64,000 bases of DNA from Nitrospinaceae bacterium (GCA_029261405.1 JAJDBK010000076.1:132-64131); one strand, 5' to 3'. Positions 15,752-64,000 are shown, counted from the first letter of the stretch. Notes: generated from the sequence alone by a model not told the origin. A program made the numbers and translations.

Positions 15752-15887
15752 ATTCCCCTCTTCAATTGTTCCCGGTCTGTGAACATGCTACAGGCCAGAC
15801 CGTTATTAATATGTTCGTTTATTGTGGAGAATGCATTACGACACCAGGAGACAGTATCCATTTCAGAAGCGCCGATAAACATCAGGA

Positions 15888-16361: not shown

Positions 16362-16391
16362 TACTACTTTTCCCCCCTCCGGTAAAACGTT

Positions 16392-24267: not shown

Positions 24268-24339
24268 AAGGCGGTTCTCCTGACTCGATATTATCACTTC
24301 GTTGTTGCGTGATTTTAATCCACAGGGTTCAATAGTGCC

Positions 24340-40909: not shown

Positions 40910-41614
40910 TCAGCGGTCCGCCGAAGTTAATGGGGATTTATCCATCACTTGCAAGACTCCGATACCGGAAAACTCGTCTGCGGTTTGCCACGTCATTCCG
41001 CCTTGAAAAAAAGACTTGAAATCAGTCAGATCCTCGAAAAACGGACGCTGGGTTTTATCAAACCTGGCTTTCCAGATTATGCGGCCATCTTCAGGGCTGA
41101 CCACAGCTACCGAAAAAGCTACCGACGCAGGTTTATCCGCCGTAAAATTTCCGCCTACACGCTCTTCATAGCGGGCGACATACCCGACAATAACCGCGTC
41201 CGCCCCCGTTTCCTTGGCTACTGAAACGGCTAGAGCGATGTCGAAATCGCCTCCATTATAGATTCTGTCTGTCACCTCGTTTACCTCTTCGGCTCCAACC
41301 AGCGTGAAACCACGCTCCGAGAGTTGAGCGCTGAAATGGTCGGCAATGGTCTCACCTGAGCCTGACAATACATCAGCGGGAGCGAAATTAAACCCGGTTA
41401 TGGGGCACAGGTTTCCGTCAGGAATTCCCTCCGCAAATTTAATAACGGCTACTTTTTTGATAGAGGAAATTGAAGAGTCAGTTGACCGTTCGGGTACCGT
41501 CACACCATGCCGGGACGAATAATCCCGGTGGCGGTGAGAGGAACATGAGACCAGCAGAACAGAACAGATAATAATCGTTACCAGGGATCGAACAGCAGTA
41601 TCGAACTTGTTCAT
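40910..41614 (-). CDS. lipoprotein with LpoB/TolB-N-like fold (COG3417-type)
   Basis: Lipobox LLVSC. GETIADHFSAQLSERGFTLVG...ADAVIVGYVARYE...EDGRIIWKARFD aligns by eye with the E. coli LpoB core (ATETLRNAL..GKFTLVS...AHYVLYS...TGEIIWSGK). Confidence 0.45.
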   Translation of the reverse strand: MNKFDTAVRSLVTIIICSVLLVSCSSHRHRDYSSRHGVTVPERSTDSSISSIKKVAVIKFAEGIPDGNLCPITGFNFAPADVLSGSGETIADHFSAQLSERGFTLVGAEEVNEVTDRIYNGGDFDIALAVSVAKETGADAVIVGYVARYEERVGGNFTADKPASVAFSVAVVSPEDGRIIWKARFDKTQRPFFEDLTDFKSFFQGGMTWQTADEFSGIGVLQVMDKSPLTSADR

Positions 41615-41635
41615 GGAACCTCCTTTGTCGTAATG

Positions 41636-42121
41636 TCAGCTAACACCGTTATTTTTCAGGTAATGTCCGCTCTTCCCCCCGCTCTTTTCCATCAGCGAAA
41701 TATCGGTGATAACTATCTCCTTATCGACCGACTTTACCATGTCGTATACGGTCAATGCGCAAACGCTCACCGCCGTCAAAGCGTCCATCTCAACGCCGGT
41801 CTTTCCGGTAGTCGAAACTTTCGCGGTTATCTTTATGGAAGATCGCTCAGGCTCCGGCGTAAGGTTGACCTCCACACCCGAGATAAGAATTGAGTGGCAT
41901 AGAGGTATCAGGTCGTCTGTTTTCTTCGCCGCCATTATTCCCGCCAATCGGGCGGTTTCAAGGACATCACCTTTGGCGATTTGTCTGTCGAGAACAAGTT
42001 TCAGGGTTGAGTCTTTCATAATGATCCATCCCTCCGCCACGGCGTATCTTCCTGTATCGTCTTTGCCAGAGATATCGACCATCCTGGCTCTCCCCTTCTC
42101 ATCGAAATGGGTCAGGCTCAT
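41636..42121 (-). CDS. moaC: cyclic pyranopterin monophosphate synthase accessory protein
   Basis: LTHFDEKGRARMVDISGK...LIPLCHSI...MDALTAVSVCALTVYDM is a canonical MoaC. Confidence 0.85.
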   Translation of the reverse strand: MSLTHFDEKGRARMVDISGKDDTGRYAVAEGWIIMKDSTLKLVLDRQIAKGDVLETARLAGIMAAKKTDDLIPLCHSILISGVEVNLTPEPERSSIKITAKVSTTGKTGVEMDALTAVSVCALTVYDMVKSVDKEIVITDISLMEKSGGKSGHYLKNNGVS

Positions 42122-45799: not shown

Positions 45800-46395
45800 T
45801 CGCTCACCTGGCCGGAAAGGTTCTCTACAAAAACCCCGATTCGACCGTTATCGATGTAAACGGAGTCGGATATCATGTCATGGTGTCAGTGAACACCTTC
45901 TGCGCCCTCCCTGATCATGGGTCTGAAATTTCGTTGTTCATACATACCCATGTGAGAGAGGACGCTCTGCTCCTTTTCGGGTTTTCCGGGACAAAGGAGC
46001 TTGAGGTTTTTAAACGGCTCATCGGAGTGACTAAAATTGGGCCAAAACTTGCCATGACGATTCTCTCCGGGGCGCCTCCCGAAAGGTTCGTCGATGCGGT
46101 TATAAACGGTGACAAGACGGCTCTCTCCGCCATACCGGGTGTCGGGAAGAAGACCGCGGAACGGATCATAATGGAGCTTGCCGACAAATTCGCGGGATTC
46201 GGATCAGGCATTGGCGGGGAGCCTGTTACACCGGTAAACAGGGTTGCCGAAGATACAGTTTCCGCTCTGGTCTCTCTCGGTTATAAAAGAGCCGTGGCGG
46301 AAAAAGCGGCCAACAAAGCCATAGGCGCCCTGCCATCAGCCGACATCGAAACAGCTCTCAAAAACTCGTTGGCTATCCTGTCGAGCGGCGTTTAA
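45796..46395 (+). CDS. ruvA: Holliday junction branch migration protein RuvA
   Basis: MIAHLAGKV...VIDVNGVGYHVMVS, HhH motifs and the C-terminal domain III. There is a 4-nt overlap with ruvC. Confidence 0.9.
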   Translation: MIAHLAGKVLYKNPDSTVIDVNGVGYHVMVSVNTFCALPDHGSEISLFIHTHVREDALLLFGFSGTKELEVFKRLIGVTKIGPKLAMTILSGAPPERFVDAVINGDKTALSAIPGVGKKTAERIIMELADKFAGFGSGIGGEPVTPVNRVAEDTVSALVSLGYKRAVAEKAANKAIGALPSADIETALKNSLAILSSGV

Positions 46396-47834
46396 TCTGG
46401 TTGTAGCAGAAACAACGTGTCGTGGATCTTTTTGATACGTCGGTCCTCACCAACGGCGGCCCCCTCTTTTCCCCTGATGGCGTATTCGTAGATCACAGCC
46501 TTATGCGGATGGTGTTTCCTGATTAAGGACCGTTTCCATTTTCGCGCATAGATAATTTTTGCGGTCGATGGCAAAAGTCCGGCCCGCTCCCATACATGGA
46601 ATGTTCCGTTGCCGTAATACTGGCTCAAGAATATTAGAGTGTTGTCATGATCGGGAAGGTAGTTGCGAATGGCGTTGAGGTTTTTTCTCTCCCGCTCCTG
46701 TTCCGCTGTCAGGCGAAGGTTGTCGAAGGTTGGCAATTTCACGAACCGGGACACCGTTTCGGAGAAAGCCACGTTATTGTAATTGAGAATGGTGAAGGCG
46801 TTTATCAAGGTGAAGAGAACAAGAGCGGCGCTTCTTTTCCGGCTTCCCAAACCGGAGAGATAGACGGCGATGGGGAGGGCGAGAAGTGGAGCAACGGCAA
46901 TGTAATACCGGATATTCGGCCCGGTCCCTTCGTAATAAATGATTGGCCCCACAAATATCAACAATACAAGCGACCACTCAAGTCTGTATGGATAAGATCG
47001 CCTGATAAATAGCGTCGGCGCCAGAACGGAGTAAGCAAGTGTCAGGAAAACCAGCAGGTACCCGGTGTTGCTCGCCAGAATAGCGATCCGGTCCCGCCCT
47101 TGCAAAAAATTGTGTTTATTGGTCCCCATGTTGAATGTAGGAACAAGGCCGTTCTGGGCGGCGATTATCACACCCGATAACACCAGAAGGAAAAACAACG
47201 ACACCAGAAGGTTAATCCGCGACTCGCTCAACCCGCCCCTTCTCATAAAAATAAATAACCCACCCAAGGGTAACAGAATCAATCCGTGATGTTTCACCCA
47301 GACAGCCAGCACGACAAGAAGGGCGAAGATCGGCCCGTCATACAGCAACGCCGTCCGCGATGTGGCCCGATCAAGAAAGATCATTGCCCATAAAAACAGG
47401 AGCGCGAACAGAGTGTCCTGATACCCGGACATAAACTGGTAGAAAACAAGAGGGTTGAAAACCGTTATGAAGGTCGCCACAGCCATCAGCCGCGAATCGC
47501 AACCGAGCCTCTTGAGAAAAACCGGAACCGTGACCACCCACAACGATGTCCAGAAGAGCGAGGACAATTTTAATCCCGTATTGACACCGAAAAGAGATGC
47601 GAACGGATACGAGACTATGGGAAAACCGAGCGGTTTATTTCGAGCGTACTCTATCGATCCGAGTATACCGTAACTGTCGATGGCCTGTATAATCCGGGCG
47701 TAGATAACGCTGTTGCGCACTATCGGCGTTTCGATATTCACCAGAGTAAACGCGATGCCGAGAAGAATAAAACCGGCCACAAATATGGTCGTGGATTTTT
47801 CTCTCGTCATGAACGAACTGTTCTGGTCCAGCAT
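46392..47834 (-). CDS. polytopic membrane glycosyltransferase, GT39/GT83-like (PMT/ArnT family)
   Basis: 480 aa with >10 TM helices. The N-terminal loop with ...ARIIQAIDSYG... and the overall architecture resemble ArnT/PMT-type transferases. The assignment is by pattern only. Confidence 0.55.
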   Translation of the reverse strand: MLDQNSSFMTREKSTTIFVAGFILLGIAFTLVNIETPIVRNSVIYARIIQAIDSYGILGSIEYARNKPLGFPIVSYPFASLFGVNTGLKLSSLFWTSLWVVTVPVFLKRLGCDSRLMAVATFITVFNPLVFYQFMSGYQDTLFALLFLWAMIFLDRATSRTALLYDGPIFALLVVLAVWVKHHGLILLPLGGLFIFMRRGGLSESRINLLVSLFFLLVLSGVIIAAQNGLVPTFNMGTNKHNFLQGRDRIAILASNTGYLLVFLTLAYSVLAPTLFIRRSYPYRLEWSLVLLIFVGPIIYYEGTGPNIRYYIAVAPLLALPIAVYLSGLGSRKRSAALVLFTLINAFTILNYNNVAFSETVSRFVKLPTFDNLRLTAEQERERKNLNAIRNYLPDHDNTLIFLSQYYGNGTFHVWERAGLLPSTAKIIYARKWKRSLIRKHHPHKAVIYEYAIRGKEGAAVGEDRRIKKIHDTLFLLQPD

Positions 47835-48469
47835 GTGTAGGCGGCCACAAGAAACATCAGTTCCGCAAGGACTTTGAAAATGTCTTCGGCTATAGAAAGA
47901 AGTGTGTGAAAATCCCGCTCAGAAATGATATCGCGCCGGTTGGTAAGAGCGTCGAACAGTACCATCAGGACGAGCAATAGAACCCCGCCGATCAAAGGTC
48001 GCAAGCCATCGATGTATGGCCATAGCCTCCCACGAAACCGGATAAATAGTGTAAGTCCCACGACTCCGTAAAAAAGAATCAGCATATCGTCGAGCCGGTC
48101 CGTAATAGCTGTCTCTTTTAATCCGAAAACTTTGTGGATGAAAAAATCAGCGTTTTCATGGATTTCCATCGTCTCGTCGAAAGCCAGAAAGAGGAAACCT
48201 GCTGACATAAGAGCCCAGATAATCGAACCTGCGGGATGTAACGACTCCACAGAATCGGCCAGTTTCTCTTTTTCGTATACAATCCAGCAGAAGAGGGATA
48301 TCGCCACAAGGTTGAAAGACGAAAGAAACGTTACAACCTCACCTTCGGTAAAGTAACGTTTTGAATGTCCTTCCGAGTAACCTGCGATAATAGCCCCTGT
48401 CAGAACTGCAAGGTTGAGGGTGAGGGCAAGCGTAGGGAAACTAATTGTATTTGGTTTCATAACTGCCAC
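47807..48469 (-). CDS. hypothetical integral membrane protein (about 6 TM)
   Basis: Hydrophobic segments throughout. Its 3-prime end overlaps the start of the GT39-like gene by 28 nt. Confidence 0.35.
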   Translation of the reverse strand: MAVMKPNTISFPTLALTLNLAVLTGAIIAGYSEGHSKRYFTEGEVVTFLSSFNLVAISLFCWIVYEKEKLADSVESLHPAGSIIWALMSAGFLFLAFDETMEIHENADFFIHKVFGLKETAITDRLDDMLILFYGVVGLTLFIRFRGRLWPYIDGLRPLIGGVLLLVLMVLFDALTNRRDIISERDFHTLLSIAEDIFKVLAELMFLVAAYTCWTRTVRS

Positions 48470-48817: not shown

Positions 48818-49913
48818 ACTGGCTCAGAAAAGTATCGATACACTTTGATAGCGATTCCTTGAACGCCTCTTTGGAAAACCGCCCGGCATGGGCGCTTATC
48901 CTTGCCTGATCGAATCTCTCGTAAGACGCCGTAAACATAACCACAGCGTCGACAAGATCCTGGGTGGTCTGATTTTTAAAAAAAAGACCCGTTACGCCTG
49001 GTACGACAGTCTCCAGAGCGCCCCCCTTGCCATAAGCTATCACCGGTGTTCCACACGCCATCGCTTCCACAGGTGTGATACCGAAATCCTCCTCACCCGG
49101 AAACAGAAGCGCTTTCGCGCCCCGGTATAGGTCCCGAATACGTTCATCCGATACGGCGCCCTCAAATGTGACATTCGGACCTGCCAAACCTTTCAACCGT
49201 TTTTCATCCTCCCCCGACCCGACAACGACCAGTGGGAAACCGGCTCTCATAGAAGCCTCAATGGCAATCTCCACCTTTTTGTACGGAGCGAAAGCCGAGA
49301 CCACCAGATAATAATCACCTTTTGTTACGTTATGGTCGGGAGTGAAAAATTCTGTATCCGCAGGGGGGTGTACCACATCCGCTGAAGCGTTATAAATCCT
49401 GCCGATCCGCTCCTTGACGTAGTGCGAGTTAGCGACGAAACGATCAACTCGTGAAGCCGTTGCGATATCCCACTTGCGAAGATATGGCATCAGGCGCCCT
49501 ATGGCAAAAGAGACCATTGCGGGGAAACGATCCTTATTAAAATAACTTTCGTACATATCCCAGGCGTAACGCATCGGGGTGTGGCAGTAGCAGATATGGG
49601 GAGCGCCGCCGGTTATGACACCTTTCACAACACAATGAGAAGATGAAATCACCAGATCGTAACCGGAAAGATCGAGCGACTCCACAGCTTTTGGCATGAG
49701 AGGCAGGTACCACCTGTATTTGCTCTTTATTAAAGGCGCGTGTTGCAGAAAGGATGTGTATATTTTACGATCCTCGATCAGGTCTGATACCGAACCTTTG
49801 ATATGGAGCAGTGTATAAAGATCGGCTGTCGGATAGAGCTCGCACATCGCTTCCAGTACTTTTTCTCCACCCCGCATCCCGGTGAGCCAGTCGTGCGCCA
49901 GCGCTACTTTCAA
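48804..49913 (-). CDS. GT4/GT1-family glycosyltransferase
   Basis: MKVALAHDWLTGMRGGEKVL and a C-terminal GT-B E-x7-E region (FPGEEDFGITPVEAMACGTPVIA). Confidence 0.75.
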   Translation of the reverse strand: MKVALAHDWLTGMRGGEKVLEAMCELYPTADLYTLLHIKGSVSDLIEDRKIYTSFLQHAPLIKSKYRWYLPLMPKAVESLDLSGYDLVISSSHCVVKGVITGGAPHICYCHTPMRYAWDMYESYFNKDRFPAMVSFAIGRLMPYLRKWDIATASRVDRFVANSHYVKERIGRIYNASADVVHPPADTEFFTPDHNVTKGDYYLVVSAFAPYKKVEIAIEASMRAGFPLVVVGSGEDEKRLKGLAGPNVTFEGAVSDERIRDLYRGAKALLFPGEEDFGITPVEAMACGTPVIAYGKGGALETVVPGVTGLFFKNQTTQDLVDAVVMFTASYERFDQARISAHAGRFSKEAFKESLSKCIDTFLSQSTSE

Positions 49914-50974
49914 ACCATCACCTCCTCGTAAACCCGCAATGTTTCTCGCGCCGCCTTCTCCCAGCTAAACTGTTTTATACGCTCGCGACCTTTATCAACC
50001 AGTTCTTTTCTGAAACCTTGGTCGAGCGATATTTTCTTTAAAGCCTCAGCCATTGCCGGGTAGTCGTCCGGGTCAACCAATATTGCGGCATCACCAGTAA
50101 CCTCCGGGATCGAAGAGCGGTTAGACGCTACCACCACACTTTGGCAGGCCATAGCCTCTAAAGGTGGAAGACCAAAACCCTCCAGGTATGAAGGAAATAG
50201 AAGAGCGGTCGCCCCGGTGTAGAGCGCTTCCATCTCACCTTTTTCAAGCCGGTTTAAAAAGCGGACATCACCGGCTACTTCATCAAAAAGGCTCTTGTCA
50301 TCTACCCTGCCGACGATCACAAACCGGGCTACCTCCCCCATAAGTTTCATCGTATTCGCTACGGCTTTGAGGTTTTTGTGAGGTCGGTCGGAGCCTACAA
50401 AAAGGAAATAGCCCGATGATAGATTCATTTTCGCCAAAACTTCGTCAAGTTCTCCATCGGCTGTTTTTCTGAAATCACCACCGCCGTTTAGAACAACCCT
50501 GATCTTGTCAGCCGGTGTATTCATTCTTTGCATCAGTTCTTTTTTTGTCGTTTCCGAGACTACAATAACCTTCCCGGCTTTTTTTACGGCCTTCTTAATC
50601 ATCCACTGGGCGTAAGCCTTGCGGTGACAACGCAGGCTATCGTCCTGTAGGTGGATCAAGTCATGAACTGTAACGACCGACCTGCATTTAGTGCGCAACG
50701 GCAGTGTGTAGTGAGGTGAATGGAACAGGTCGATCTTATGTTCTGTCGCTTTGGCCGGTAACGAAAAATGCTCCCACACAGAATATTTACCAGCCTTCTC
50801 CACAACCTTCGTGACCCGATTTTCCGGGTAGTAAAACTCCTTCTCTTCCCCCGGAGCGAAGAAAAGGACGTAGTGGTGGCTCTTATCGACCAGGAGAAGG
50901 TTTTTCACGAGATTGTCTATGTGTCGGCCTATTCCTGTATCCTTGATTTTTCTTACGTCTACGCCTATCCTCAT
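49910..50974 (-). CDS. GT4/GT1-family glycosyltransferase
   Basis: MRIGVDVRKI...GIGRH and C-terminus FPSYLEGFGLPPLEAMACQSVVVASN. There is a 4-nt overlap with the downstream GT4. Confidence 0.75.
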   Translation of the reverse strand: MRIGVDVRKIKDTGIGRHIDNLVKNLLLVDKSHHYVLFFAPGEEKEFYYPENRVTKVVEKAGKYSVWEHFSLPAKATEHKIDLFHSPHYTLPLRTKCRSVVTVHDLIHLQDDSLRCHRKAYAQWMIKKAVKKAGKVIVVSETTKKELMQRMNTPADKIRVVLNGGGDFRKTADGELDEVLAKMNLSSGYFLFVGSDRPHKNLKAVANTMKLMGEVARFVIVGRVDDKSLFDEVAGDVRFLNRLEKGEMEALYTGATALLFPSYLEGFGLPPLEAMACQSVVVASNRSSIPEVTGDAAILVDPDDYPAMAEALKKISLDQGFRKELVDKGRERIKQFSWEKAARETLRVYEEVMV

Positions 50975-51092
50975 CGCTCTGTTTTTTTGTTTTCTCCGGG
51001 TGCGATTGTATCACCGGTTATTGTGGCAATAGAGTTTTAAGTCAAACTGATATAATTGGTGGGTTGTAGACAATTTATCGTAAAAGAGAAGT

Positions 51093-51692
51093 ATGAGTGA
51101 CGAAAACGACTGGTTACACAAGTGGTACCGGTTGCACGACCGTTTCGACAAGATCAAGAAACGTGTAAGGAAATCCTTGCCGGGAAAGCACAACCTGCAG
51201 GATAGCGGCGCTCATCGCCTGTTCGGCCCTACGCTTTTCAAACCTGAGCTGTGGAGTTTTAAAGCTGAACCGTTGGCGCGCGGACTTGCCATAGGTATGT
51301 TCGTCGCCTTCACTCCCACCCTCGGATTCCAGATGGCTATCTCCTGCTTTATTCTTCTGCTGATTCCTGGCAACCTCCCTATCGCCATTGCGGTCTGCTG
51401 GATTACAAATCCCGCCACAGCGGCGCCGATCTATTACGCCGAATACAGGGTGGGGGAGTGGATATATTCCATATTCGGCGTGACACCGGCTGAGTCTTTC
51501 GATCAGGGATTCACTGTTGACAGTATGTTCGACGCCGCAGGCGCTCTCTGGGTCGGGTCGATAGTAGTAAGCGCAATACTGGCTGTGGCGAGTTATTTCC
51601 TTTTGTTCGGATTTATCTACCTGGAAAGAAAAACCCGTTTTGGGAAACATCTTCATTTCCGACGCAAAAGACCCGGAAACAGGAAAAAGTAA
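51093..51692 (+). CDS. DUF2062-family membrane protein
   Basis: RGLAIGMFVAFTPTLGFQMAISCFILLLIPGNLPIAIAVCWITNP pattern, as I recall for DUF2062. These proteins are often found beside glycosyltransferases. Confidence 0.55.
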   Translation: MSDENDWLHKWYRLHDRFDKIKKRVRKSLPGKHNLQDSGAHRLFGPTLFKPELWSFKAEPLARGLAIGMFVAFTPTLGFQMAISCFILLLIPGNLPIAIAVCWITNPATAAPIYYAEYRVGEWIYSIFGVTPAESFDQGFTVDSMFDAAGALWVGSIVVSAILAVASYFLLFGFIYLERKTRFGKHLHFRRKRPGNRKK

Positions 51693-51762
51693 CCCTTTTG
51701 TTTTCTCCAATCGCGTTATAAAATCAACATTTTATGTTTCTTCACTATTAAAGGCTCGAAAA

Positions 51763-52317
51763 ATGGGACTTCCGCAAACCAGCACTCTTGATTTCGTGAA
51801 AATATTCTCCAAAGGTATTCGTGACATGTTCGCAAGTAGCGCCGGGATAAATGTGGAGGTGGCAAGGTCAGCCATGCGCGTTACCGGAGTTCAGGTCGCA
51901 GGCGACATCGGGGCGTTTGTCGCGTTTAAAGGGGATTATAACGGCATTATGATCCTTAATTTTGAAGGTGGCGCCGCCCTGGAACTGGTTGCCGCTTACC
52001 TGACCCACCTTGGACTGCCGCCGGAGGATGTGCCTACCACGTTTCAGAACGACGACGTTCGTAACAACATCGGCGAGATAACAAACCAGATCATTGGTAA
52101 AAACAGGACAATGGTACAAGACATACTCGACCTCTCCGCCAGAGCCAACATTCCGGCTGTGGTGCCCATAACCATCCCGATCGCCCTGCAGATGGTATCT
52201 AAAGAGCCGGGAGAATTCGAATGTATACGGGTATCGTTCACCACACCGAAACGTAACAAGTTTTACATGGAAGTCGCTATGGAACAGCTCAAGGTGGAGA
52301 CGCTCAAGCTCGACTAG
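51763..52317 (+). CDS. CheC/CheX-family (CheY-P phosphatase-like) protein
   Basis: NIGEITNQIIGKN...P fits the E-x2-N-x22/23-P active-site pattern of CheC/CheX. The ATG at 51763 is preferred over the upstream extension that overlaps DUF2062. Confidence 0.45.
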   Translation: MGLPQTSTLDFVKIFSKGIRDMFASSAGINVEVARSAMRVTGVQVAGDIGAFVAFKGDYNGIMILNFEGGAALELVAAYLTHLGLPPEDVPTTFQNDDVRNNIGEITNQIIGKNRTMVQDILDLSARANIPAVVPITIPIALQMVSKEPGEFECIRVSFTTPKRNKFYMEVAMEQLKVETLKLD

Positions 52318-52346
52318 CCCCAATAATCACATTCCCGATAAAGAAT

Positions 52347-53390
52347 ATGGACCAGGAGAAGATCAGGCTGACAAGGTTAGCCCAGTCAGGTGGTTGAGGG
52401 TCGAAGTTGGGTCCGTCGGATCTGCGTCGCGCGCTCACCGGTATCGCCCCTTTCACCGACCCTGCAATGCTCTACGGGTTTGGTCCGGGGGACGATACAG
52501 GTGCGTACAAGCTCTCGGACGACCTTGTTATAGTGCAGAGCGTAGATTTCTTCACACCTGTGGTGGACGATCCTTACCTGTTTGGCCAGATCGCGGCGGC
52601 CAACGCTCTTTCAGACCTATACGCAACGGGGGCAAGACCTGTATCCGCCCTCAACATTCTGGCCTTTCCAACGGCTCTCGGCATGGAGACAGCCTCAATG
52701 ATACTGCGTGGTGGAGCGGAAAAGGTCCGGGAGGCTGGCGCGGCGCTCCTCGGAGGCCACAGTGTTGCCGACAAGGAGCCGAAATACGGTCTTGCGGTGA
52801 CAGGCGTAGTTGATCCGGCCCGTATGGTAACTATCAAAGGAGCGAAACCGGGGGACGCTGTAATCCTTACATCGAAAATCGGAACCGGTATTATCACCAG
52901 CATGAAAAGAAATGACAGTTTTGTTTCAGTCGAAGATTACACAGAGATGACGGATGCAATGGCGAAACTTAACAATGTCGCAGGGGCGGTCATGTCTCGA
53001 TTTCCAGTAACCTCGTGCACCGATGTCACCGGATTCGGACTGCTTGGTCATGCGATGAATATCGCCGAAGCCTCCGATGTAAATATCTCTATCTCGTGCA
53101 AAGAAGTTCCTCGTTACAGAGGCGCCCTTGAAAACGCCTTGCAACATACTAAAGGTGGAGGTGAGCGGAACCACTCATGGATAGAAAACTCGTTAAACCG
53201 CTCAACAGATGTGGAGGAGGCGTCTGTTATGCTGTTTTGCGACCCCCAGACATCGGGTGGTCTGCTGATTACCGTCCCGGAGAAAACCGCATCGGCTCTA
53301 CTGAACGCTCTCAAAGGCGATGGCGAAACAGACTCGGCCATCATCGGCCATGTGTCGCGCGGACCGACTGGCATCTCCCTCCTGCCGTAA
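52347..53390 (+). CDS. selD: selenide, water dikinase (selenophosphate synthetase), selenocysteine-containing form
   Basis: ATG at 52347 gives MDQEKIRLTRLAQSGG-U-GSKLGPSDL... with an in-frame TGA at 52395-52397. This aligns with E. coli SelD [12 protein letters not shown]17-GCKISPKVL. The downstream AIR-synthase-like body (DFFTPVVDDPYLFGQIAAANALSDLYATGARP) is canonical. The ORF track shows only the part after the TGA. Confidence 0.8.
52395..52397 (+). other. in-frame UGA predicted to encode selenocysteine in SelD
   Basis: Position aligns exactly with the catalytic Cys/Sec of SelD. The upstream 16 codons in the same frame show strong SelD N-terminal similarity. Confidence 0.7.
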
Positions 53391-53396
53391 TCTGCA

Positions 53397-54080
53397 ATGC
53401 TAAAGCGGATAATAAACTCCTATATCGCTCCAGCTCTCATTTATCCGCTTATATACTCAATTCTGGTCACCCTGCGCCTTACTGAAAAAGGGAAAGAGCA
53501 TGAAAAAAAAGCTCTTGCCGAAGGAAAGCCCCTCATATATACCTTCTGGCACAGCAGACTCCTCTATTTTCCCCACTACTACAGGAAAACATCACACGAC
53601 CTGAAAATCCTGATAAGTCCCAGTGTGGACGGGGAGATAATCACCAGGATAGCGACATTTTACGGTTTCGGCGCCATTCGGGGATCAAGCTTCAAGCAGG
53701 CGCGTAAGGCGTTTATGGCCTTGAAAAAAAGCATCCTGGACGGTTTTTCCGTAGGTCTTGTCGCGGATGGCTCACGGGGGCCGAGCGAGGTTTTTCAACC
53801 CGGCTCCCTTATGTTGTCGAAACTTACCGGTTCCGCCGTAATCCCTTTGACAGTCTCTTATTCCTCTTTCTGGACCTTGAAAACATGGGACCGGACGATG
53901 ATCCCGAAACCGTTTAGCGATGTCGTGGTAATATATGGAAAGCCTGTGACCTGCCCAAAAAACGCTGATTCAGACGACCTTGAACGGCTCAGGGCGACTC
54001 TTGGTGAAAACCTTTCACGCATCACAGGCGAAGCGGACAGTTTTTTCAATAATAATAGCGCTAAACCACAACATACATGA
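53397..54080 (+). CDS. DUF374-family lysophospholipid acyltransferase-like protein (often fused or adjacent to Kdo transferase)
   Basis: LIYTFWHSRLLYFPHYY...LISPSVDGEIITRIATFYGFGAIRGSS...GLVADGSRGP pattern typical of DUF374. Confidence 0.6.
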   Translation: MLKRIINSYIAPALIYPLIYSILVTLRLTEKGKEHEKKALAEGKPLIYTFWHSRLLYFPHYYRKTSHDLKILISPSVDGEIITRIATFYGFGAIRGSSFKQARKAFMALKKSILDGFSVGLVADGSRGPSEVFQPGSLMLSKLTGSAVIPLTVSYSSFWTLKTWDRTMIPKPFSDVVVIYGKPVTCPKNADSDDLERLRATLGENLSRITGEADSFFNNNSAKPQHT

Positions 54081-54129
54081 CACCTCAAATGATTTTACAA
54101 CAACATATAGATATCAAGGCGATGTTACC

Positions 54130-55416
54130 TTGAATCGGGTGATTCGTGGGCTTTATCGTCAGGCGACACGTCCGCTATTTCTCCTCTACTCCCCTTTTTT
54201 GCTTTTCAGGCTCTTCACACGCCCCGAATACAGGAAAGGTATACGGCAACGCCTCGGATACGAGCTTCCGGAAATCGCTCCAGGCTCGATCTGGATTCAC
54301 GCGGTCTCGGTGGGCGAAGTCATAACCGCTGTCCGCCTTGTCAGAGAATTTAATGAAAAATCAGTTCCTGTTATCTTAAGCGTAACAACACCAACAGGTT
54401 ACGATGTCGCCATTTCGAAGTTGTCGGGCCATGCGACCATAATTCATTTCCCCATCGACCTTCCCGGAGCGGTAAAAAGGAGCGTGAGAGGGATAAAACC
54501 GTCTCTTCTGGTAACTATCGACACCGAAATATGGCCCAATGCCATCTGGGAAGTAAAAAAGAGTGGCGCCGCCGTAGCCATCGTCAACGGCAGGATATCG
54601 GATCGCTCCTACCCCCGCTATAAACGGTTAAATTTTCTATTTAAAGAAGCCCTTGAGAGTGTCGATCTGCTCCTTATGCAAAGTGACGCTGATGTAAACC
54701 GCATAATAAATATCGGCGCCAATCCGACTTCGGTCTTTAACTTGGGTAATATAAAATTCGACTCGGAAAACCTGGATGAGACTGAAAAACCGACAAGGCT
54801 CGATCTGCGAAAGTCTCTCGGAATCGGCCCCGATGAGCAGGTAATAATGCTTGGAAGTCTGCATGAAGGGGAGGATCAGGCCATAACCTCGGCTATTCAC
54901 GCCATTAAAAAGAAGGGCTCTGGTCGGCTTGTCATCGCTCCTCGCAGAATAGAGAATATCGACTGGATCACAAATATCCTTGAAAAAGAAGGTTTTATAG
55001 CTGAACGAAGGAGCGGGGCAAACCCGAATCCCGATGTTCGACCCGATCTGGTTCCGGTCATAGATACGTTCGGCGAGTTAGGGCTTCTCTACAGCGTGGC
55101 GGACATTGTGTTTACCGGGGGAAGCCTGATCGATCATGGAGGGCAGAATCCGCTCGAACCTGCCAGCCATGCTATCGCGCCAATATTCGGCCCGAACATG
55201 TGCAATTTCAGTTCAGCGGTAAAAGCGTTGCTGGAAGTGGATGGCGCGTGGCAGGTGGGAAGTAGCGAAGAATTGCCGGAGCTATTCAATTCACTTTTGT
55301 TAAACAAGAAAAAAAGGGGAAAGCATGGTCAGGCCGCGTTGGAAGTGGTGATGAAAAACAGGGGTGTCACAAAAAGAGTCGCCGAACGACTGATGAAACT
55401 TATAGAACAGCCATGA
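54130..55416 (+). CDS. waaA: 3-deoxy-D-manno-octulosonic acid (Kdo) transferase
   Basis: RPEYRKGIRQRLGYELPE...IWIHAVSVGEV..A..LV N-terminal signature and a C-terminal GT-B domain. The start is uncertain (candidates TTG 54130 or GTG 54139). The ORF in the track extends upstream into the DUF374 gene. Confidence 0.75.
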   Translation: MNRVIRGLYRQATRPLFLLYSPFLLFRLFTRPEYRKGIRQRLGYELPEIAPGSIWIHAVSVGEVITAVRLVREFNEKSVPVILSVTTPTGYDVAISKLSGHATIIHFPIDLPGAVKRSVRGIKPSLLVTIDTEIWPNAIWEVKKSGAAVAIVNGRISDRSYPRYKRLNFLFKEALESVDLLLMQSDADVNRIINIGANPTSVFNLGNIKFDSENLDETEKPTRLDLRKSLGIGPDEQVIMLGSLHEGEDQAITSAIHAIKKKGSGRLVIAPRRIENIDWITNILEKEGFIAERRSGANPNPDVRPDLVPVIDTFGELGLLYSVADIVFTGGSLIDHGGQNPLEPASHAIAPIFGPNMCNFSSAVKALLEVDGAWQVGSSEELPELFNSLLLNKKKRGKHGQAALEVVMKNRGVTKRVAERLMKLIEQP

Positions 55417-56384
55417 GACGAGCAGAAGAACTGCTTTTAGCATTGTCACTGGGGAAGGATCATGACGCTCTAATAAACCCTCTGCAAGGGGACGCAAGTT
55501 CCCGGTCGTATCTCCACGCCCGCTTTAATGATGAAGTCATGGTGGTCATGAAATGCCCCGAAACAGGCTCGGTCGATCTTTTCGCCGAAATGACCGGAAT
55601 CATGCGCTCCCTCGGCGCCGACACTCCAACAATATACGCTCGTAATGGTCGTTATATGGCACTGGAGGATTGCGGTGACGATCTGTTACAAAAGTATGTC
55701 TCGGTGATGAACGACGATGCGATTTCCGATATTTACCAAAAGGTGATCGACGACCTGATACGATTCCAGGCGCAAACAAAGTCGTTAACCAAAAGAGAGT
55801 CCGACTGTTTTGCCCTTGCGCTCGATATAAAGAAACTTTCATTTGAGACAAGCTTTACCCTGGAGCATTTTATCGAAGGTTTTTTAAGGGTAACCTTGAC
55901 TGACAGTGAGAGAGAAACGCTCGACTCAGAGTGGACGAAGGTTGTCCATGAGCTTGCATTGAAGGTAGAAACCCTTTGCCACAGAGACTTTCACTCCCGT
56001 AACATCCTGTGTCATAAAGGCAGACGGGTCTGGATAGATTATCAGGACGCTCGCATGGGTCGCATGACATACGACCTCGCCTCCCTGCTCGAAGATCCCT
56101 ATGTCGATCTGCCCGTAGCGTTACGCGAGGAGTTTTGCGAATATTATTTCATCGAAGCTGGCAAGGCGGGATTAGCCTTGTGGAACCGGGACGAATTCGG
56201 GCGACTCTACAGATTTTCGGCCATGCAACGAATATACAAAGCTCTCGGCACGTTCGGTTACCAGGCCAACAGCCTGAACGTCAATACATACATTCCGTTT
56301 ATGGCGCCTGCCATGAGAACACTTTTGAGGCTGACCACCGATCCTCTCACTCCTCTTCTGGAGCGTTTCGCTTCACGTCTGTAA
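55413..56384 (+). CDS. protein-kinase-like fold phosphotransferase (APH/ChoK family), possible LPS-core or sugar kinase
   Basis: Catalytic loop LCHRDFHSRNIL and WIDYQDARMG (Brenner/APH motif). There is a 4-nt overlap with waaA. Confidence 0.55.
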   Translation: MRRAEELLLALSLGKDHDALINPLQGDASSRSYLHARFNDEVMVVMKCPETGSVDLFAEMTGIMRSLGADTPTIYARNGRYMALEDCGDDLLQKYVSVMNDDAISDIYQKVIDDLIRFQAQTKSLTKRESDCFALALDIKKLSFETSFTLEHFIEGFLRVTLTDSERETLDSEWTKVVHELALKVETLCHRDFHSRNILCHKGRRVWIDYQDARMGRMTYDLASLLEDPYVDLPVALREEFCEYYFIEAGKAGLALWNRDEFGRLYRFSAMQRIYKALGTFGYQANSLNVNTYIPFMAPAMRTLLRLTTDPLTPLLERFASRL

Positions 56385-58291: not shown

Positions 58292-58633
58292 TTAAGACTT
58301 GACCGCCTCGAATCCTTCTTCTTCCGTTTTGACAACCTTGATTTTGGAATCGAGTCGAGTAAACGAAAAGAGTTCCGCCAAGTCTTCAGATAGGTTCGAG
58401 ATAACCAGAATGCCTTTGGCCTCCTTTGCCCGCTTCGCCGCCAGGGCCAGCCTGCCGAGGCCAGAGCTGTTGATGAAGTTTACTTCCTTGAAGTTCAGGA
58501 TTATTTTGACCTTCCCCTCTTCAAGAGTCTCGTCGATAGTCTTCTTGAATGCGGAATAGTCGTCGTTTGTTCTGATGTTGCCGATAACCTCGACAACCCG
58601 AACTCCGTCTTCGTCTCTATATACTACTCTCAA
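58292..58633 (-). CDS. STAS-domain protein (anti-sigma-factor antagonist-like)
   Basis: 113 aa with KIILNFKEVNFINSSGLGRLAL. A conserved Ser in the SSGLG motif is typical of SpoIIAA/RsbV. Confidence 0.7.
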   Translation of the reverse strand: MRVVYRDEDGVRVVEVIGNIRTNDDYSAFKKTIDETLEEGKVKIILNFKEVNFINSSGLGRLALAAKRAKEAKGILVISNLSEDLAELFSFTRLDSKIKVVKTEEEGFEAVKS

Positions 58634-58763
58634 TGCGATACGCCTTCGTAAATACCGGTGTTTATGTTGAGAACAGAAATTATACGCTTAAAACTTAAAC
58701 TTGAGGCATTATACTGGATCAAGGCTCTTTGTCCAATACCCCAATTTAGCCCCTGTAACTTTT

Positions 58764-59597
58764 TCAGTTTTCCGTTGCCGTAATCTTCGATTTCACCAGG
58801 CCGAAAGAAGCCACCTTTTCATCTTCGCTGTATTCAAAAGAGTCTGCGTAATACATGGCGACCATAAGGCTTACACCTTTTGGTGAGTTGATATCCGAAT
58901 CGCTGAACGATCCCGGGATTTCGCTTTTGTGAAAAGATCTTACCGGTGATTTGATAGAAATATTGATCTCTTCACGTGTCATCCCCGCTTCGACAACGAT
59001 CATATCCTCTACGTTAGCCTCCTTTGAACAGTTCACAGCCTTCATCAGGAGTTCGTCCAGGATGAACGGGATCCGCGCAAGACAGGTATGGCTGTCGTAG
59101 CCGAGGCTCTGGGCCGTGCTGAAGATATGGCGGACTACGGCTTCAGCCTTCTCCTCGGAAGGAGCGATGGAAGTAGAGAGATCGTACTGTACAGAGTCAA
59201 CATCTTCAGCGTCACTCTTCCTCAAGAGGAAGTTAAGTCTCAGCCCCTTCTTTACAACATTCACAAGCGTTGAAGTTTCAAAGGGTTTGGTGACAAAGAA
59301 AAAAGCCCCTCTTGCAAGGGCTTCGACAGCCAAATCGAAGGTACCGTATCCCGTAATAATAATAACAGGAATACCCGGCTGGATTTCGTGGACCTGCTTT
59401 ATCAGATCGAGTCCGTTCATTCCTGGCATTCTGATGTCGGTAATCACGAGATCGACGGAATTCTCATGCAGTTGCATAAGCCCTTCCATGGCGTCTCCGG
59501 CTGTAATCGCCTTGTAGCCGCTTTTTTCGAGGATTCGGCTGACGATTTTCCTGATATCCTTTTCGTCATCTACAACCAGTACGGTTTTTGCGTTCAT
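58764..59597 (-). CDS. response regulator receiver fused to a C-terminal RsbW/HATPase_c_2-like (anti-sigma kinase-like) domain
   Basis: Receiver is TVLVVDDEKDIRK...DLVITDIRMPGMNG. The C-terminal ~140 aa have a weak N-box-like LDELLMKAVNCSKEA. The second-domain assignment is tentative. Confidence 0.7.
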   Translation of the reverse strand: MNAKTVLVVDDEKDIRKIVSRILEKSGYKAITAGDAMEGLMQLHENSVDLVITDIRMPGMNGLDLIKQVHEIQPGIPVIIITGYGTFDLAVEALARGAFFFVTKPFETSTLVNVVKKGLRLNFLLRKSDAEDVDSVQYDLSTSIAPSEEKAEAVVRHIFSTAQSLGYDSHTCLARIPFILDELLMKAVNCSKEANVEDMIVVEAGMTREEINISIKSPVRSFHKSEIPGSFSDSDINSPKGVSLMVAMYYADSFEYSEDEKVASFGLVKSKITATEN

Positions 59598-59932
59598 TTT
59601 CTACTTCCACACCGCATGCAATGGAAGAACGGACATGGGGCTATACTCCGAGTACTGCCGAAAAGGCGCTGACAACGATCTCAAGACAACCAAAACGCAC
59701 ACATCCTTCTCCTGAATTGACACCACCATATTAACACCATGTTACAGAATTGCCCCATTTAATTCACCCGACATTCAAAGATTGATGGACCGCCACAACC
59801 GACACTTCGAAGTTTCCCACAAAATCAAAAAAATTTGATTAAGTAGTAAAATGAATCACATCAAGCGGCGCCTTGTGATAAAATCCGGGTGTACAGGTAG
59901 ATCACATTAACGGTTATGTTGGGAAATTCACA

Positions 59933-62728
59933 TTGACCGACCACGAATATCAAGAGCTTCTTGAAACTCTGGACGAGATCGTCTCGCTTACCGGGGCGCT
60001 TACCGCCGATCTTACCGACAAGAAGACCATCTCCGATATCATGCTGGCGATGGAAAAAATCATACCTCCTTTAAACGAGAGGGTCGCGCCAAAGGTTACC
60101 CGCCTGGGGGTCGCGTTAGCTTCCCTCTACGAAAAGTTCCTGATGGAAACCGTAGCCAACGGCGAGCCTGGCCTGGAGCAAACTGTTGCGGGGATAGCTG
60201 TAATAAGGAGAGCTCTCACAAAAGAGGGTTCCCCCACTGAACTTGACAGTTCAGCAGACACCGCTGTTTCTGTTATCTCTTCTGAATACGGGATAGAAAC
60301 GCCACCGGCGGAACCCTCCACAGACATTGCAACCGATACGGTCGATCCTGTTGTCGCGATGGATTCATCATCCGATGAGACCGAAGAGTTGGCGAATGAT
60401 GAGGAGGAGGACGACTTCTTCGTCGGCATGACTTATGAGCCAAAGGAGCCGCATCCGGAATTTGAGAAAGCTGACGAACCGGCCCAGAACGAATCTATTT
60501 TGAAGATTTCGGCCATAGCTTCCAATATCACCATGCTTGACCCGGAGATGACCGACAAGAAACTGGTGTCTGACCTGGTTATCGGTTTCGATAATCTCGT
60601 AAAGGATTTCACGGAAAAAAAACTTCCCCACAGTCTGATTTTACTTTGCAAAGGGCTTTCCGGGGTTTTCGAAAAAAGCCTGATGGCGGGACTAGACGAT
60701 GGTGAGCTTGCGGTTAAACTCACGGGCGACGGGGTGCGAATCCTCGACGCGTTCTTCGAGGATATTGAGGATAAAGAGGCGATCCTCGGCAGAGCGGACG
60801 ACCTGACGGGCTTCTTTGTCGCTGACCTGGGTATTGAAATTGAGGACGAACAGCAAAAGAGAGAGGCGCCGCAAGAAGCGGAGCCTGAGGATGAAGGCTC
60901 CCACCCCAAAATAGTCTCAATTCCCATCGCTTCGGACGACGACCTTCTTCTCTATTCCGAATTCGTCAGCGAAACATCCGACATGACTGTCGCCATGGAG
61001 GAGGGACTGCTTGAACTGGAGGAGAACCCCGAGGACGAGAATGTTATCAACACGATTTTCAGGGCATTCCACAGCCTCAAGGGAGCCGCTGGTTTCCTCG
61101 GCCTGAACACAGTCAACGTTCTGTGCCACGAGTGCGAAAACCTGTTGGACAAACTGAGGAAGAAAACACTCGACCTCAACCAGGAAATGATTGATGTCTT
61201 CCTGAAGTCAGTCGACGTTATCAAGGCGATAAACGAAGAGCTGGATGAGTCGTGTACCCAGGCGAAAAGCCAGACACCAAACACCCAGATCGAAACTACG
61301 CGCTTCAAGATAAGCGATCTGTTGTCCACAATTTCCAATCTTGTCGAAGGCAAGCGGGATGACGACTCTGAAGGTGAAGAGGCGGATGAGACGGAGATGC
61401 TCGGAGACATCCTCCTCAAGAAACGACTGATTTCGGAAGGTCAGCTCAAGCAGGCTCTGGAAAACCAGAAACCTGTCGGTAAAATCCTTGTGGAGATGGG
61501 TGTCCTCGAAGAAAAGGTTGTCGATGACGCTTTAAGAGAACAGTCGCAGAAAAGGACCAAGAAAAAAGCGGTAGCCGCCCTGAAGGTGGATACCGAGAAG
61601 CTCGATAGCCTCCTGGAACTGGTTGGTGAACTGGTAATTTCCCAGTCGATCGTAGCTCAGGACAGCGTTCTTGGCGACGACCTGAACAAGGGTCTACAGA
61701 AAAACCTCTCCAGCATGGGGAAGATCACAAAGAACATCCAGGATCATGTTATGAACCTGCGCATGATTCCTATCAAGCAGACTTTCCAGAAGATGAGCAG
61801 ACTTGTCCGGGATCTTTCAAAAAAGATGGAAAAACCGGTCACCCTCCACCTCTCAGGGGAAGAGACTGAAATCGACAAAACCCTTGTAGAGGAGTTGAGC
61901 GATCCGCTGGTTCACCTGATGCGAAATGCGCTCGACCACGGTCTGGAGCCTCAGGCCGACAGAATCGACGCAGGCAAGTCACCCACCGGCAACGTATGGC
62001 TATCGGCCTACCACAAGGGGGGTAACGTCTATATTGAGGTCACCGATGACGGGCGAGGGTTAAACAGGGACAGGATCCATGAAAAAGCTGTCGAAAAAGG
62101 ATTGATTGACCCAGACCACGATCTTTCCGAGCACGAGATTTACAACCTCATCCTGGAGCCTGGATTCTCTACGGCTCAGGTGGTTACCGATGTATCGGGA
62201 CGTGGTGTCGGCATGGATGTTGTTCGCTCGAACATTGACAGGCTCGGAGGCAGAATAGAGATAAACTCCACACCCGGCAAAGGGAGTACCATGGCGGTAA
62301 AGCTACCACTGACCATGGCTATTGTGGACGGTATGATAGTGAGGATCGGTGATGAAAGGTTTATAATACCAACGATTTCGATCCGGGAATCGATCCGTCC
62401 CAAAAAAGACGAGATCAGCACGGTAAGAAACCAGGGTGAACTGATAAATATCAGGGGCAGGCTGTTGCCGCTGGTCCGACTGGTCGAAAAACTTAACGTC
62501 GAAGACGCCGAATGCCTGAATCCGTGGGAAGGACTTGTTATAATAGTCGAGAGCGACGACAAGGAGTATGGTCTCATGGTCGATGACCTTCTTGGCCAGC
62601 AGCAGGTGGTAATAAAAAGCCTGGGCAAGAGGTTCAAGGGACTGGCTGGCATATCGGGCGGCACAATTCTGGGCGACGGTCGGGTCGGACTGATTCTGGA
62701 CGTGGCCGGCGTTGTGGAGATGAACTAA
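59933..62728 (+). CDS. cheA: chemotaxis histidine kinase CheA with a ~350 aa N-terminal extension containing an internal tandem duplication
   Basis: Hpt (FRAFHSLKGAAGFLGL), dimerisation, HATPase (DDGRGLN, GRGVGMDVV) and C-terminal CheW domain. TTG start at 59933 is uncertain. Confidence 0.8.
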   Translation: MTDHEYQELLETLDEIVSLTGALTADLTDKKTISDIMLAMEKIIPPLNERVAPKVTRLGVALASLYEKFLMETVANGEPGLEQTVAGIAVIRRALTKEGSPTELDSSADTAVSVISSEYGIETPPAEPSTDIATDTVDPVVAMDSSSDETEELANDEEEDDFFVGMTYEPKEPHPEFEKADEPAQNESILKISAIASNITMLDPEMTDKKLVSDLVIGFDNLVKDFTEKKLPHSLILLCKGLSGVFEKSLMAGLDDGELAVKLTGDGVRILDAFFEDIEDKEAILGRADDLTGFFVADLGIEIEDEQQKREAPQEAEPEDEGSHPKIVSIPIASDDDLLLYSEFVSETSDMTVAMEEGLLELEENPEDENVINTIFRAFHSLKGAAGFLGLNTVNVLCHECENLLDKLRKKTLDLNQEMIDVFLKSVDVIKAINEELDESCTQAKSQTPNTQIETTRFKISDLLSTISNLVEGKRDDDSEGEEADETEMLGDILLKKRLISEGQLKQALENQKPVGKILVEMGVLEEKVVDDALREQSQKRTKKKAVAALKVDTEKLDSLLELVGELVISQSIVAQDSVLGDDLNKGLQKNLSSMGKITKNIQDHVMNLRMIPIKQTFQKMSRLVRDLSKKMEKPVTLHLSGEETEIDKTLVEELSDPLVHLMRNALDHGLEPQADRIDAGKSPTGNVWLSAYHKGGNVYIEVTDDGRGLNRDRIHEKAVEKGLIDPDHDLSEHEIYNLILEPGFSTAQVVTDVSGRGVGMDVVRSNIDRLGGRIEINSTPGKGSTMAVKLPLTMAIVDGMIVRIGDERFIIPTISIRESIRPKKDEISTVRNQGELINIRGRLLPLVRLVEKLNVEDAECLNPWEGLVIIVESDDKEYGLMVDDLLGQQQVVIKSLGKRFKGLAGISGGTILGDGRVGLILDVAGVVEMN

Positions 62729-62758
62729 GGCGTCAAGACATTATAGGAATTCTGATTA

Positions 62759-63181
62759 ATGGCTGTTAACATTCTGGTCGTGGACGACGAAGAAGGGATC
62801 CGCGGCTCCATCAATTCGTATCTGAGGCTTAACGACTACCGTACAGATGTAGCTTGCAACGGCGTCGAAGCTGTGCGGAAGGTGCGCAACGAGAAGTACA
62901 ATATTATACTTCTTGACATTAATATGCCGGAGATGGATGGACTTGAGACGCTTCAGGTCATCAAGAGCATCGACTTTTCGATACAGGTTATCATGATGAC
63001 CGCCTATTCAACCTTTGACAAAACCATGAAATCACTCGAGTACGGGGCCAACGACTACATCCTGAAACCGTTTGGGGACCTCTCCGAGATCCTTGACCTT
63101 GTACGCATGTCAGAAGAGCGCCTCGACCGCTGGAAACGGAACATGTCCGCGTCCATCGTCAGACAGAAAGAGGATGAATGA
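62759..63181 (+). CDS. cheY: CheY-like single-domain response regulator
   Basis: ILVVDDEEGIR...IILLDINMPEMDG...KPF, 140 aa. Confidence 0.8.
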   Translation: MAVNILVVDDEEGIRGSINSYLRLNDYRTDVACNGVEAVRKVRNEKYNIILLDINMPEMDGLETLQVIKSIDFSIQVIMMTAYSTFDKTMKSLEYGANDYILKPFGDLSEILDLVRMSEERLDRWKRNMSASIVRQKEDE

Positions 63182-63199
63182 AGAAACCATTAAGGAGCT

Positions 63200-63724
63200 G
63201 TGAGTAAGATGACCGTAGAAAACGCTTCAGCGAATAGCGCCGCCCCCACAGGCGCAAAGACCATTGGCTCCCTGGATGGGAAATACCTTACGTTTGTACT
63301 GGGGGAAGAGGAGTACGGGCTGGAAATCCTGAAAGTCCGGGAGATCATCGGGCTGATGGAAATCACCAGTGTCCCCCAGACTCCCGACTTTATAAAGGGA
63401 GTTATCAACCTCCGGGGAAAAGTGATACCCGTCATTGACCTGAGGCTGAAATTCGGCATGGCTGAGGTGGAGCCGACCGAAGAGACATGCGTTATCGTTG
63501 TGGATATAGTAGGATCGATGATGGGCATTCTTGTAGATACCGTATCTGAAGTTCTCGATATTGGCGCCAACCAGATCGAACCGCCCCCATCATTCGGAAG
63601 CAAAGTGGACGCGGATTTTATAATGGGGATGGGCAAGATCAAGGATAAGGTAAAAATCCTGCTCGATATCGACCGGGTTCTCTCCACTGAAGAACTGTTG
63701 CGTATAACCGGCGCCACAGGATAG
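63200..63724 (+). CDS. cheW: chemotaxis coupling protein CheW
   Basis: KYLTFVLGEEEYGLEILKVREII...VINLRGKVIPVIDLR. GTG start at 63200 follows AGGAG. An ATG at 63209 is an alternative. Confidence 0.8.
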   Translation: MSKMTVENASANSAAPTGAKTIGSLDGKYLTFVLGEEEYGLEILKVREIIGLMEITSVPQTPDFIKGVINLRGKVIPVIDLRLKFGMAEVEPTEETCVIVVDIVGSMMGILVDTVSEVLDIGANQIEPPPSFGSKVDADFIMGMGKIKDKVKILLDIDRVLSTEELLRITGATG

Positions 63725-63857
63725 TTGTCCAACTACAACCGTTTCGTGGCAACGAGGCTTAATCAATGTCGGCTTCCCATAACATCGCTGAAGCCGAATC
63801 TATTGCTCCTCTTATTACCGGAAAACAAGGCGATTGATTACAGGGAAATTTGATTAA

Positions 63858-64000
63858 GTGAGTTCAAAACATATATTTCGCGCTCCCGTTGAACTGAAGC
63901 AACGGGAGTTCGAGATGTTTCGACAACTCATTTTCGAGAAGAGCGGAATTACACTCCACGATGGCAAGAAGGAGCTTGTCCGGACGAGACTCGGTAGCCG
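63858..64000 (+). CDS. cheR: chemotaxis methyltransferase CheR, N-terminal fragment (truncated by window end)
   Basis: In-frame from GTG 63858: VSSKHIFRAPVELKQREFEMFRQLIFEKSGITLHDGKKELVRTRLGS. This matches the CheR N-terminal signalling-helix motif (EFE.FR.LI.E.SGI.L...K..LV..RL). It is not in the ORF track because it runs off the window. Confidence 0.6.
   Translation, partial: MSSKHIFRAPVELKQREFEMFRQLIFEKSGITLHDGKKELVRTRLGS

Follow-up and report, generated by a model that had tools for sequence, protein, structure and literature searches.

Selenide, water dikinase (SelD) is the second most widespread selenoprotein family of prokaryotes (PMC13188914). In a reference set of prokaryotic SelD genes 19% encoded selenocysteine (Sec), always at the position of residue 17 (PMC4561486). 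Every bacterial selenoproteome analysed included FdhA or SelD, Sec-containing SelD was listed for Deltaproteobacteria and Clostridia, and conversions of Sec to Cys were frequent in SelD (PMC1794560). As a rule selenoprotein genes are annotated wrongly, the UGA being read as a stop codon (PMC4561486, PMC13188914, PMC1794560). The initial annotation of the DNA studied here called Sec-containing SelD a known variant, which agrees with these papers, where Sec-SelD is described as common.

In the E. coli enzyme the glycine-rich region 14-21 carries a cysteine, Cys17, and the C17S mutant is catalytically inactive (PMC3956282). Insertion of Sec in bacteria depends on a hairpin in the coding sequence, for which a bSECIS model is available: an apical loop of 3-9 nt with a G among its first two nucleotides (most often GG or GU), an upper stem of 4-16 bp, a distance of 16-37 nt between the UGA and the loop, and a minimum free energy (MFE) of -7.5 kcal/mol or lower (PMC13188914). 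These elements differ between genes and lineages (PMC13188914).

In this work we analysed a selD gene with an in-frame TGA in a stretch of 64,000 nucleotides, called the window below. Judged from its sequence and from comparison with relatives, the segment 52347-53390 very probably encodes a complete, functional Sec-containing SelD with a UGA-encoded Sec at catalytic residue 17. It resembles the known bacterial Sec-SelD proteins in belonging to TIGR00476, in having UGA at the same single spot of the G-G-U-G-x-K loop, in the stem-loop located in the coding sequence just downstream, and in suffering from an equal problem of misannotation. There is no difference in kind, the dissimilarity being one of distance (49-56% identity to the nearest relatives) and of position, since this selD lies in a cell-envelope operon (DUF2062, CheX-like, selD, DUF374, waaA) and not beside selA, selB or ybbB. 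It is thus a further case of a well-described variant, distinctive only in its divergent lineage and its operon context.

Results

Reading frame of selD

The following features, all on the + strand, define the gene.

52347..53390, + strand: full coding sequence of selD, 347 codons and stop, predicted Sec at codon 17
52347..52394, + strand: N-terminal 16 codons (MDQEKIRLTRLAQSGG), first half of the glycine-rich selenium-binding loop, dropped by ORF and gene callers
52395..52397, + strand: in-frame TGA, predicted Sec codon, equivalent to E. coli Cys17
52404..52406, + strand: AAG, Lys20 of the conserved G-G-U/C-G-x-K motif (translation and alignment)
52407..52409, + strand: TTG called as start, in fact the internal codon of Leu21
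52467..52469, + strand: ATG used as start in public record P0001 (307 aa), internal Met41

One open frame runs from the ATG at 52347-52349 through the TGA at 52395-52397 to the TAA at 53388-53390, and the TGA is the single in-frame stop between the two ends. The translation reads MDQEKIRLTRLAQSGG, the TGA, then GSKLGPSDLRRAL, the residues directly after the TGA being GSKLGPSDL; it is identical to that given in the initial annotation, and the ATG is in frame with the TGA as had been proposed there. Met1 occupies the same position as in the relatives L085, L086 and L087. The 16 codons before the TGA are conserved with L086 (MQDKKIRLTKLATSGG), with L087 and with residues 1-16 of E. coli SelD. The proposal that they are homologous to the SelD N-terminus is borne out, both the TIGR00476 match and the alignment with E. 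coli SelD spanning them.

The gene callers did not find this N-terminus. The mechanical ORF listing starts selD at TTG 52407 and yields 327 aa, as had been recognized in the initial annotation, and the public gene call is mis-split further downstream: the public protein P0001, 100% identical to the product, begins with Met41 at ATG 52467. The callers give only 327 or 307 residues because the UGA is taken as a stop, and a start at residue 21 or 41 leaves a SelD product without the active-site loop.

Protein family and conserved residues

With Cys placed at the TGA, the 347-aa product scored 343.4 bits against the SelD equivalog TIGR00476, whose cut-off is 125. The match covers residues 7-314 and, of the 311 profile positions, 1-310; it is more than chance, because it starts at profile position 1 and runs through the TGA. 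Both PurM-like domains, AIRS (PF00586) and AIRS_C (PF02769), were found in the product, and the E. coli-type model NF002098 gave 284 bits, under its cut-off of 299.

E. coli SelD (PDB 3u0o) aligns with the product residue-for-residue, 1-313 to 1-313, which puts the TGA (residue 17) on Cys17, so both the alignment and the catalytic position claimed in the initial annotation hold. The loop reads SGG-U-GSK here and GAG-C-GCK in E. coli, with Lys20 kept. Unlike the product, the E. coli enzyme has Cys at residue 17, and its gene has no SECIS. The alignment with the SelD of Aquifex aeolicus (2yye), which we take to be a native Sec enzyme (PDB 2yye/2zod), begins at residue 5. The GGHS and TDVTGFG motifs and the aspartates D50, D67, D90 and D226 do not vary among 17 aligned homologues; the four aspartates presumably correspond to the metal and ATP ligands of E. 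coli SelD. With these residues and motifs preserved, the gene has no other sign of decay.

Relatives with TGA and with Cys codons

The codon of the motif could be located in 70 of 80 SelD loci taken from GTDB species genomes. TGA stands there in 52 of the 70, and TGC or TGT in the remaining 18. A tRNA-Sec was found within 6 kb of selD in nine of the 52 TGA-type loci scanned. Loci with a tRNA-Sec near a TGA-type selD include L004 (4695-4791), L009 (3702-3798), L034 (7046-7143), L035, L038, L050, L051 and L073; in L034 it follows the selD match at a distance of about 50 nt.

The nearest proteins in a collection of 5.8 billion are 53-56% identical to the product, and the nearest relatives overall 49-56%. 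Because identity is no higher than this, the gene comes from a poorly sampled, divergent lineage. Among these proteins P0002-P0007 are full length and have Cys at residue 17, whereas P0008-P0010 were called N-terminally truncated. In the DNA of the latter (L085-L087) the residue-17 codon is TGA, preceded by the conserved sequence M..K.(I/F/W)LT(K/R)(L/M)..(S/A)GG. By their DNA, P0008-P0010 belong to the Sec type, and they have been mis-called just as the selD described here was. TGA is found in three of the six nearest relatives (L085-L087) and Cys in the other three (L082-L084).

The nearest Sec-type selD genes (L085 2367, L086 2989 and L087 2962, corresponding to P0008-P0010) have all lost their N-terminus in the gene calls, and truncation of such records is a systematic annotation error.

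A putative SECIS hairpin downstream of the UGA

Two features, numbered from the U of the UGA as 1 (nt 15-29 = 52409-52423), describe the RNA structure.

52409..52423, + strand: putative bacterial SECIS upper stem-loop (fold and comparison of relatives)
52395..52437, + strand: longer predicted hairpin, spanning the UGA and the sequence as far as nt 43 (MFE fold; the lower stem is predicted only)

The hairpin consists of a 5' arm at 52409-52414 (GGGUCC), a loop at 52415-52417 (GUC) and a 3' arm at 52418-52423 (GGAUCU). The pairs are G15-U29, G16-C28, G17-U27, U18-A26, C19-G25 and C20-G24, closing the loop G21-U22-C23; the upper stem starts 11 nt and the loop G lies 17 nt after the UGA. In the initial annotation a segment at 52410-52430 had been noted as capable of pairing; the string ggtccgtcggatc, located at 52410-52422 within this hairpin, does pair. 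The MFE fold of 46 nt has -16.3 kcal/mol, with U14 bulged and the helix extending down to pair the UGA itself, although this lower stem is not conserved among relatives.

The paradigm of such elements, the SECIS of E. coli fdhF, has an 11-nt spacing, the loop nucleotides G23/U24 and a bulged U17. The hairpin in selD is similar to it and to the bSECISearch consensus in its location inside the ORF, 11 nt after the UGA, in an apical loop that begins with G-U, in the U that the MFE fold leaves bulged beneath the upper stem, and in the distance of the loop, 17 nt from the UGA with 16-37 nt in the model. It differs from the fdhF element in its loop of 3 nt, in its upper stem of 6 bp with two G.U pairs, and in having no sequence similarity to it and no match to an Rfam model. 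A search of the window against Rfam, at the gathering score and at E <= 10, returned no SECIS or other relevant family, and as there was no SECIS match even at E <= 10, the hairpin is filed under no Rfam family.

With a GUC loop, 6 bp, 17 nt and -16.3 kcal/mol the hairpin falls within the bSECIS model (PMC13188914, Fig. 2). By itself this fit is weak evidence, and thermodynamics gives no support. The fold energies of 52395-52455 and its sub-windows were not unusual compared with dinucleotide shuffles (z from +0.56 to -0.94), nor was that of the 46-nt extended hairpin (z = -0.25). Moreover, 14% of synonymous recodings fold as well, and the geometric criteria of the model do not discriminate, being passed by 66% of synonymous recodings of the peptide. 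These shuffle and recoding results are why we regard the model fit as weak. The specific six-pair helix was kept in only 3.2% of the synonymous recodings of the window's peptide.

Comparison with relatives is confounded by conservation of the peptide, since the stem is encoded by the G-P-x-D-L codons. One position escapes this: U18 is the third base of the Gly codon, and only a U there pairs with A26 in the Asp codon. In the six nearest Sec-type relatives (L002, L003, L033, L085, L086 and L087) all six pairs are intact and the Gly codon is GGU, one of several synonymous choices; together with the window they share the sequence YUG GGU CCG NNG GAY CUN. The nearest Cys-type genes (L082-L084) encode the same G-P-(D/E)-D-L but with GGC, which leaves a mismatched C.A halfway along the stem, and in two of the three the C20-G24 pair is missing too; this contrast is between seven Sec-type and three Cys-type sequences that are phylogenetically non-independent. 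The initial annotation had expected a SECIS hairpin downstream of the UGA; a hairpin of this type does lie within 30 nt, intact in the closest Sec-type orthologues and broken in the closest Cys-type ones.

Among sequences with GPxDL, GGU is used by 25 of 27 Sec-type versus 4 of 7 Cys-type genes. When all loci are taken together, the pairs of the helix form in 64-87% of the Sec-type sequences and in 17-89% of the Cys-type ones, with the widest gaps between the two types at 15-29, 18-26 and 20-24. In the 53 Sec-type sequences 74.8% of the cells of the helix are paired, compared with 19-59% after a displacement of the 3' partner by 1-3 columns. Of 500 shuffles, one attained the covariation score of the helix in these 53 sequences, from one of which the helix itself was taken. 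The Lys20 codon AAG begins with A10 and A11, and neither base varies in any of the 53.

RNAalifold, applied to the 12 Sec-type sequences of the window's subgroup, returned the same helix unprompted (pairs 16-28 to 20-24). There were no compensatory double changes in the helix among these 12 sequences, only changes from G-C to G-U. With all 53 Sec-type sequences RNAalifold did not arrive at one consensus structure, as the register varies from subfamily to subfamily; in other subgroups the register is shifted by about 6 nt (CCAGG-GGA-CCUGG). This absence of a common structure agrees with the reported diversity of bSECIS elements (PMC13188914). It is the comparative pattern that decides on the nature of the hairpin, and it supports a SECIS-type element, as far as this can be read from sequence.

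Genomic context

Profile searches and a tRNA scan found no selA, selB, tRNA-Sec or further selenoprotein gene in the 64 kb. According to a look-up of TrpA, the window begins about 20 nt into its contig of 71.6 kb. The scan detected no tRNA of any kind in the window, hence no selC there, and with Pfam and NCBIfam there was no match to SelA, SelB, SelU/YbbB, SenB, YqeB or YqeC among the neighbours. A context of selenoneine synthesis (SenABC) or of a selenium cofactor (YqeB/YqeC) was considered and rejected, as no SenB-type, YqeB or YqeC gene stands beside selD; the neighbouring GT4 proteins match only generic GT4 models, and these far under the cut-offs.

The initial annotation referred to an adjacent Moco cluster and thought formate dehydrogenases to be plausible further selenoproteins. 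Neither point is upheld by the map. The genes for MoaC, MobB, MoaE and MoeA are at 41.6-44.5 kb, 8-10 kb from selD, with YebC, RuvC, RuvA, two unknown genes and glycosyltransferases between, and no formate dehydrogenase was found in the window. In the same region (window 40910-42121, - strand) MoaC ends with TGA 41636-41638 and a lipoprotein-like gene (…LLVSCSS) starts seven codons on in the same frame; the pair was examined as a single UGA-interrupted gene, and this was rejected in favour of two separate genes.

Locally, selD starts 29 nt after a CheX-like/DUF3334 gene and ends 6 nt before a DUF374 gene. The order is GT4, GT4, DUF2062, CheX-like, selD, DUF374, waaA (Kdo transferase) and an AmgK-like kinase, with RecQ on the opposite strand. 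It recurs, with protein identities of 44-58%, in two distant metagenomic relatives, L087 (Sec-type) and L083 (Cys-type, from a hydrothermal vent), and partly in L086, where the DUF2062-selD adjacency is preserved. The spans of conserved order are as follows.

Window 49910-56384
L083 1-6149
L087 1-6990
L086 2212-4020

This envelope-gene order was found around selD in 0 of the 80 GTDB SelD loci. The linkage may possibly reflect a use of selenium tied to envelope glycans rather than a chance gene order. The Sec-type genes (window and L087) and the Cys-type gene (L083) have the order in common and differ by the UGA and by the synonymous GGU/GGC exchange.

Several other features of the window deserve mention. 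In an intergenic stretch of 757 nt, between 21041 and 21798, a C5 cytosine DNA methylase is represented by no more than its C-terminal part: the ORF 21270-21755 corresponds to PF00145 profile positions 189-319 of 324, and an overlapping ORF of 112 aa has no family match. The stretch is probably the remnant of a degraded methylase gene. Two separate chemotaxis clusters are present, one at 10394-19388 (HDOD, CheR, CheB, an MCP of 809 aa whose N-terminus is a hemerythrin domain, CheW and a CheA-CheW-receiver hybrid of 998 aa), the other at 58292-64000 (STAS, response regulator, CheA, CheY and CheW), and a stand-alone hemerythrin is encoded at 9854-10258. The 565-aa protein encoded at 22663-24360 (- strand) is an uncommon fusion, in which a Rieske [2Fe-2S] domain at the N-terminus is joined to an FMN domain of the glutamate-synthase type. 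ORFs of 480, 220 and 234 aa (46392-48469 on the - strand; 40910-41614) gave no Pfam or NCBIfam match at E <= 0.01.

Discussion

Alternative readings of the in-frame TGA

Since a Cys codon (TGC or TGT) is one base change away from TGA, the gene could be a pseudogene inactivated by such a mutation, or the TGA could be an assembly error. The nearest full-length relatives, P0002-P0007, indeed have Cys, and no Sec machinery is seen in the window. A chance lesion would, however, have had to fall on exactly the codon that is TGA in 52 of the 70 relatives, and in a gene that has both flanks intact, no other lesion and all catalytic motifs kept. The Sec-associated GGU hairpin is also present, as in the Sec-type relatives and unlike in the Cys-type ones. 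An error of assembly is opposed by the agreement of two assemblies: the same TGA occurs in an independent Logan assembly of SRR15505517 (L001), which differs from the window by one base in 13,819. We consider inactivation or error very unlikely. The one differing base lies outside the TGA, at position 55661 inside the AmgK-like kinase gene, and is A in the window and G in L001.

Read-through of the UGA without Sec, for instance by insertion of Cys or Trp through near-cognate decoding after loss of the Sec machinery, appears slightly less probable still. Read-through without Sec has been described for the UGA of an SPS gene, hymenopteran SPS1 (PMC4561486), and here, too, it counts on the side of this explanation that Sec machinery was not observed in the window. 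Against it, the SECIS-type hairpin with its G-U loop is conserved at the canonical distance and tracks UGA and not the Cys codon in the relatives, and all reports of Sec-type SelD in bacteria come from organisms that decode Sec (PMC1794560).

We give even less credence to the possibility that the upstream 16 codons are non-coding and that a truncated SelD-like protein is translated from TTG 52407 or ATG 52467. Such a product would be without the loop that bears Cys/Sec17 and Lys20, and in E. coli the C17S exchange is already enough to inactivate the enzyme (PMC3956282). The 16 codons are conserved as protein with E. coli, with A. aeolicus and with the nearest relatives. The public record does start at ATG 52467, and a GAGG resembling a Shine-Dalgarno motif is located 6-7 nt before TTG 52407, but this GAGG is merely the product of the codons GG-UGA-GG. 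Shine-Dalgarno cores precede only 18 of 48 genes in the window, therefore the weak one before ATG 52347 is uninformative.

An alternative genetic code with TGA as a sense codon (code 4 or 25), for which nothing speaks except the in-frame TGA itself, has a negligible chance of being right and can be regarded as refuted, because TGA ends 20 of the 51 long ORFs in the window (TAA 22, TAG 9), neither the genes with full-length Pfam matches nor the large multidomain genes are interrupted when read with table 11, and a scan of the window for further genes with a coding-looking segment before a TGA found only selD.

Proposed mechanism and implications

If the gene is, as we conclude, that of a Sec-containing SelD, its decoding would follow the E. 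coli paradigm: SelB-GTP with Sec-tRNA(Sec) would bind the hairpin at 52409-52423 by way of its GUC loop and bring Sec to the A site at the UGA while competing with RF2. By analogy with characterized enzymes, Sec17 in the flexible glycine-rich loop would handle selenium during ATP-dependent selenophosphate synthesis, and the product would make selenophosphate from selenide and ATP for the synthesis of Sec-tRNA, possibly also for other uses of selenium. Such an enzyme would require its own product for its own synthesis.

The clade to which this gene belongs, with its shared synteny and its synonymous changes that break the stem, is a small and clean example of SECIS decay or gain accompanying the switch between Sec and Cys. 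The process has already been described in general terms (PMC1794560).

The main value of this work is the correction of an annotation, the N-terminus being lost in the public gene calls. In P0001 (307 aa) and P0008-P0010 the catalytic loop is missing, and as a consequence family assignment, structure prediction and metabolic inference based on these records miss the active site.

For the organism, the finding means that it is probably a user of selenocysteine. It is unlikely that SelD is its only selenoprotein, or one of very few, and alone maintains the Sec-decoding trait. As a Sec user the organism would be predicted to carry selA, selB and selC, and possibly other UGA-interrupted genes, elsewhere in its genome.
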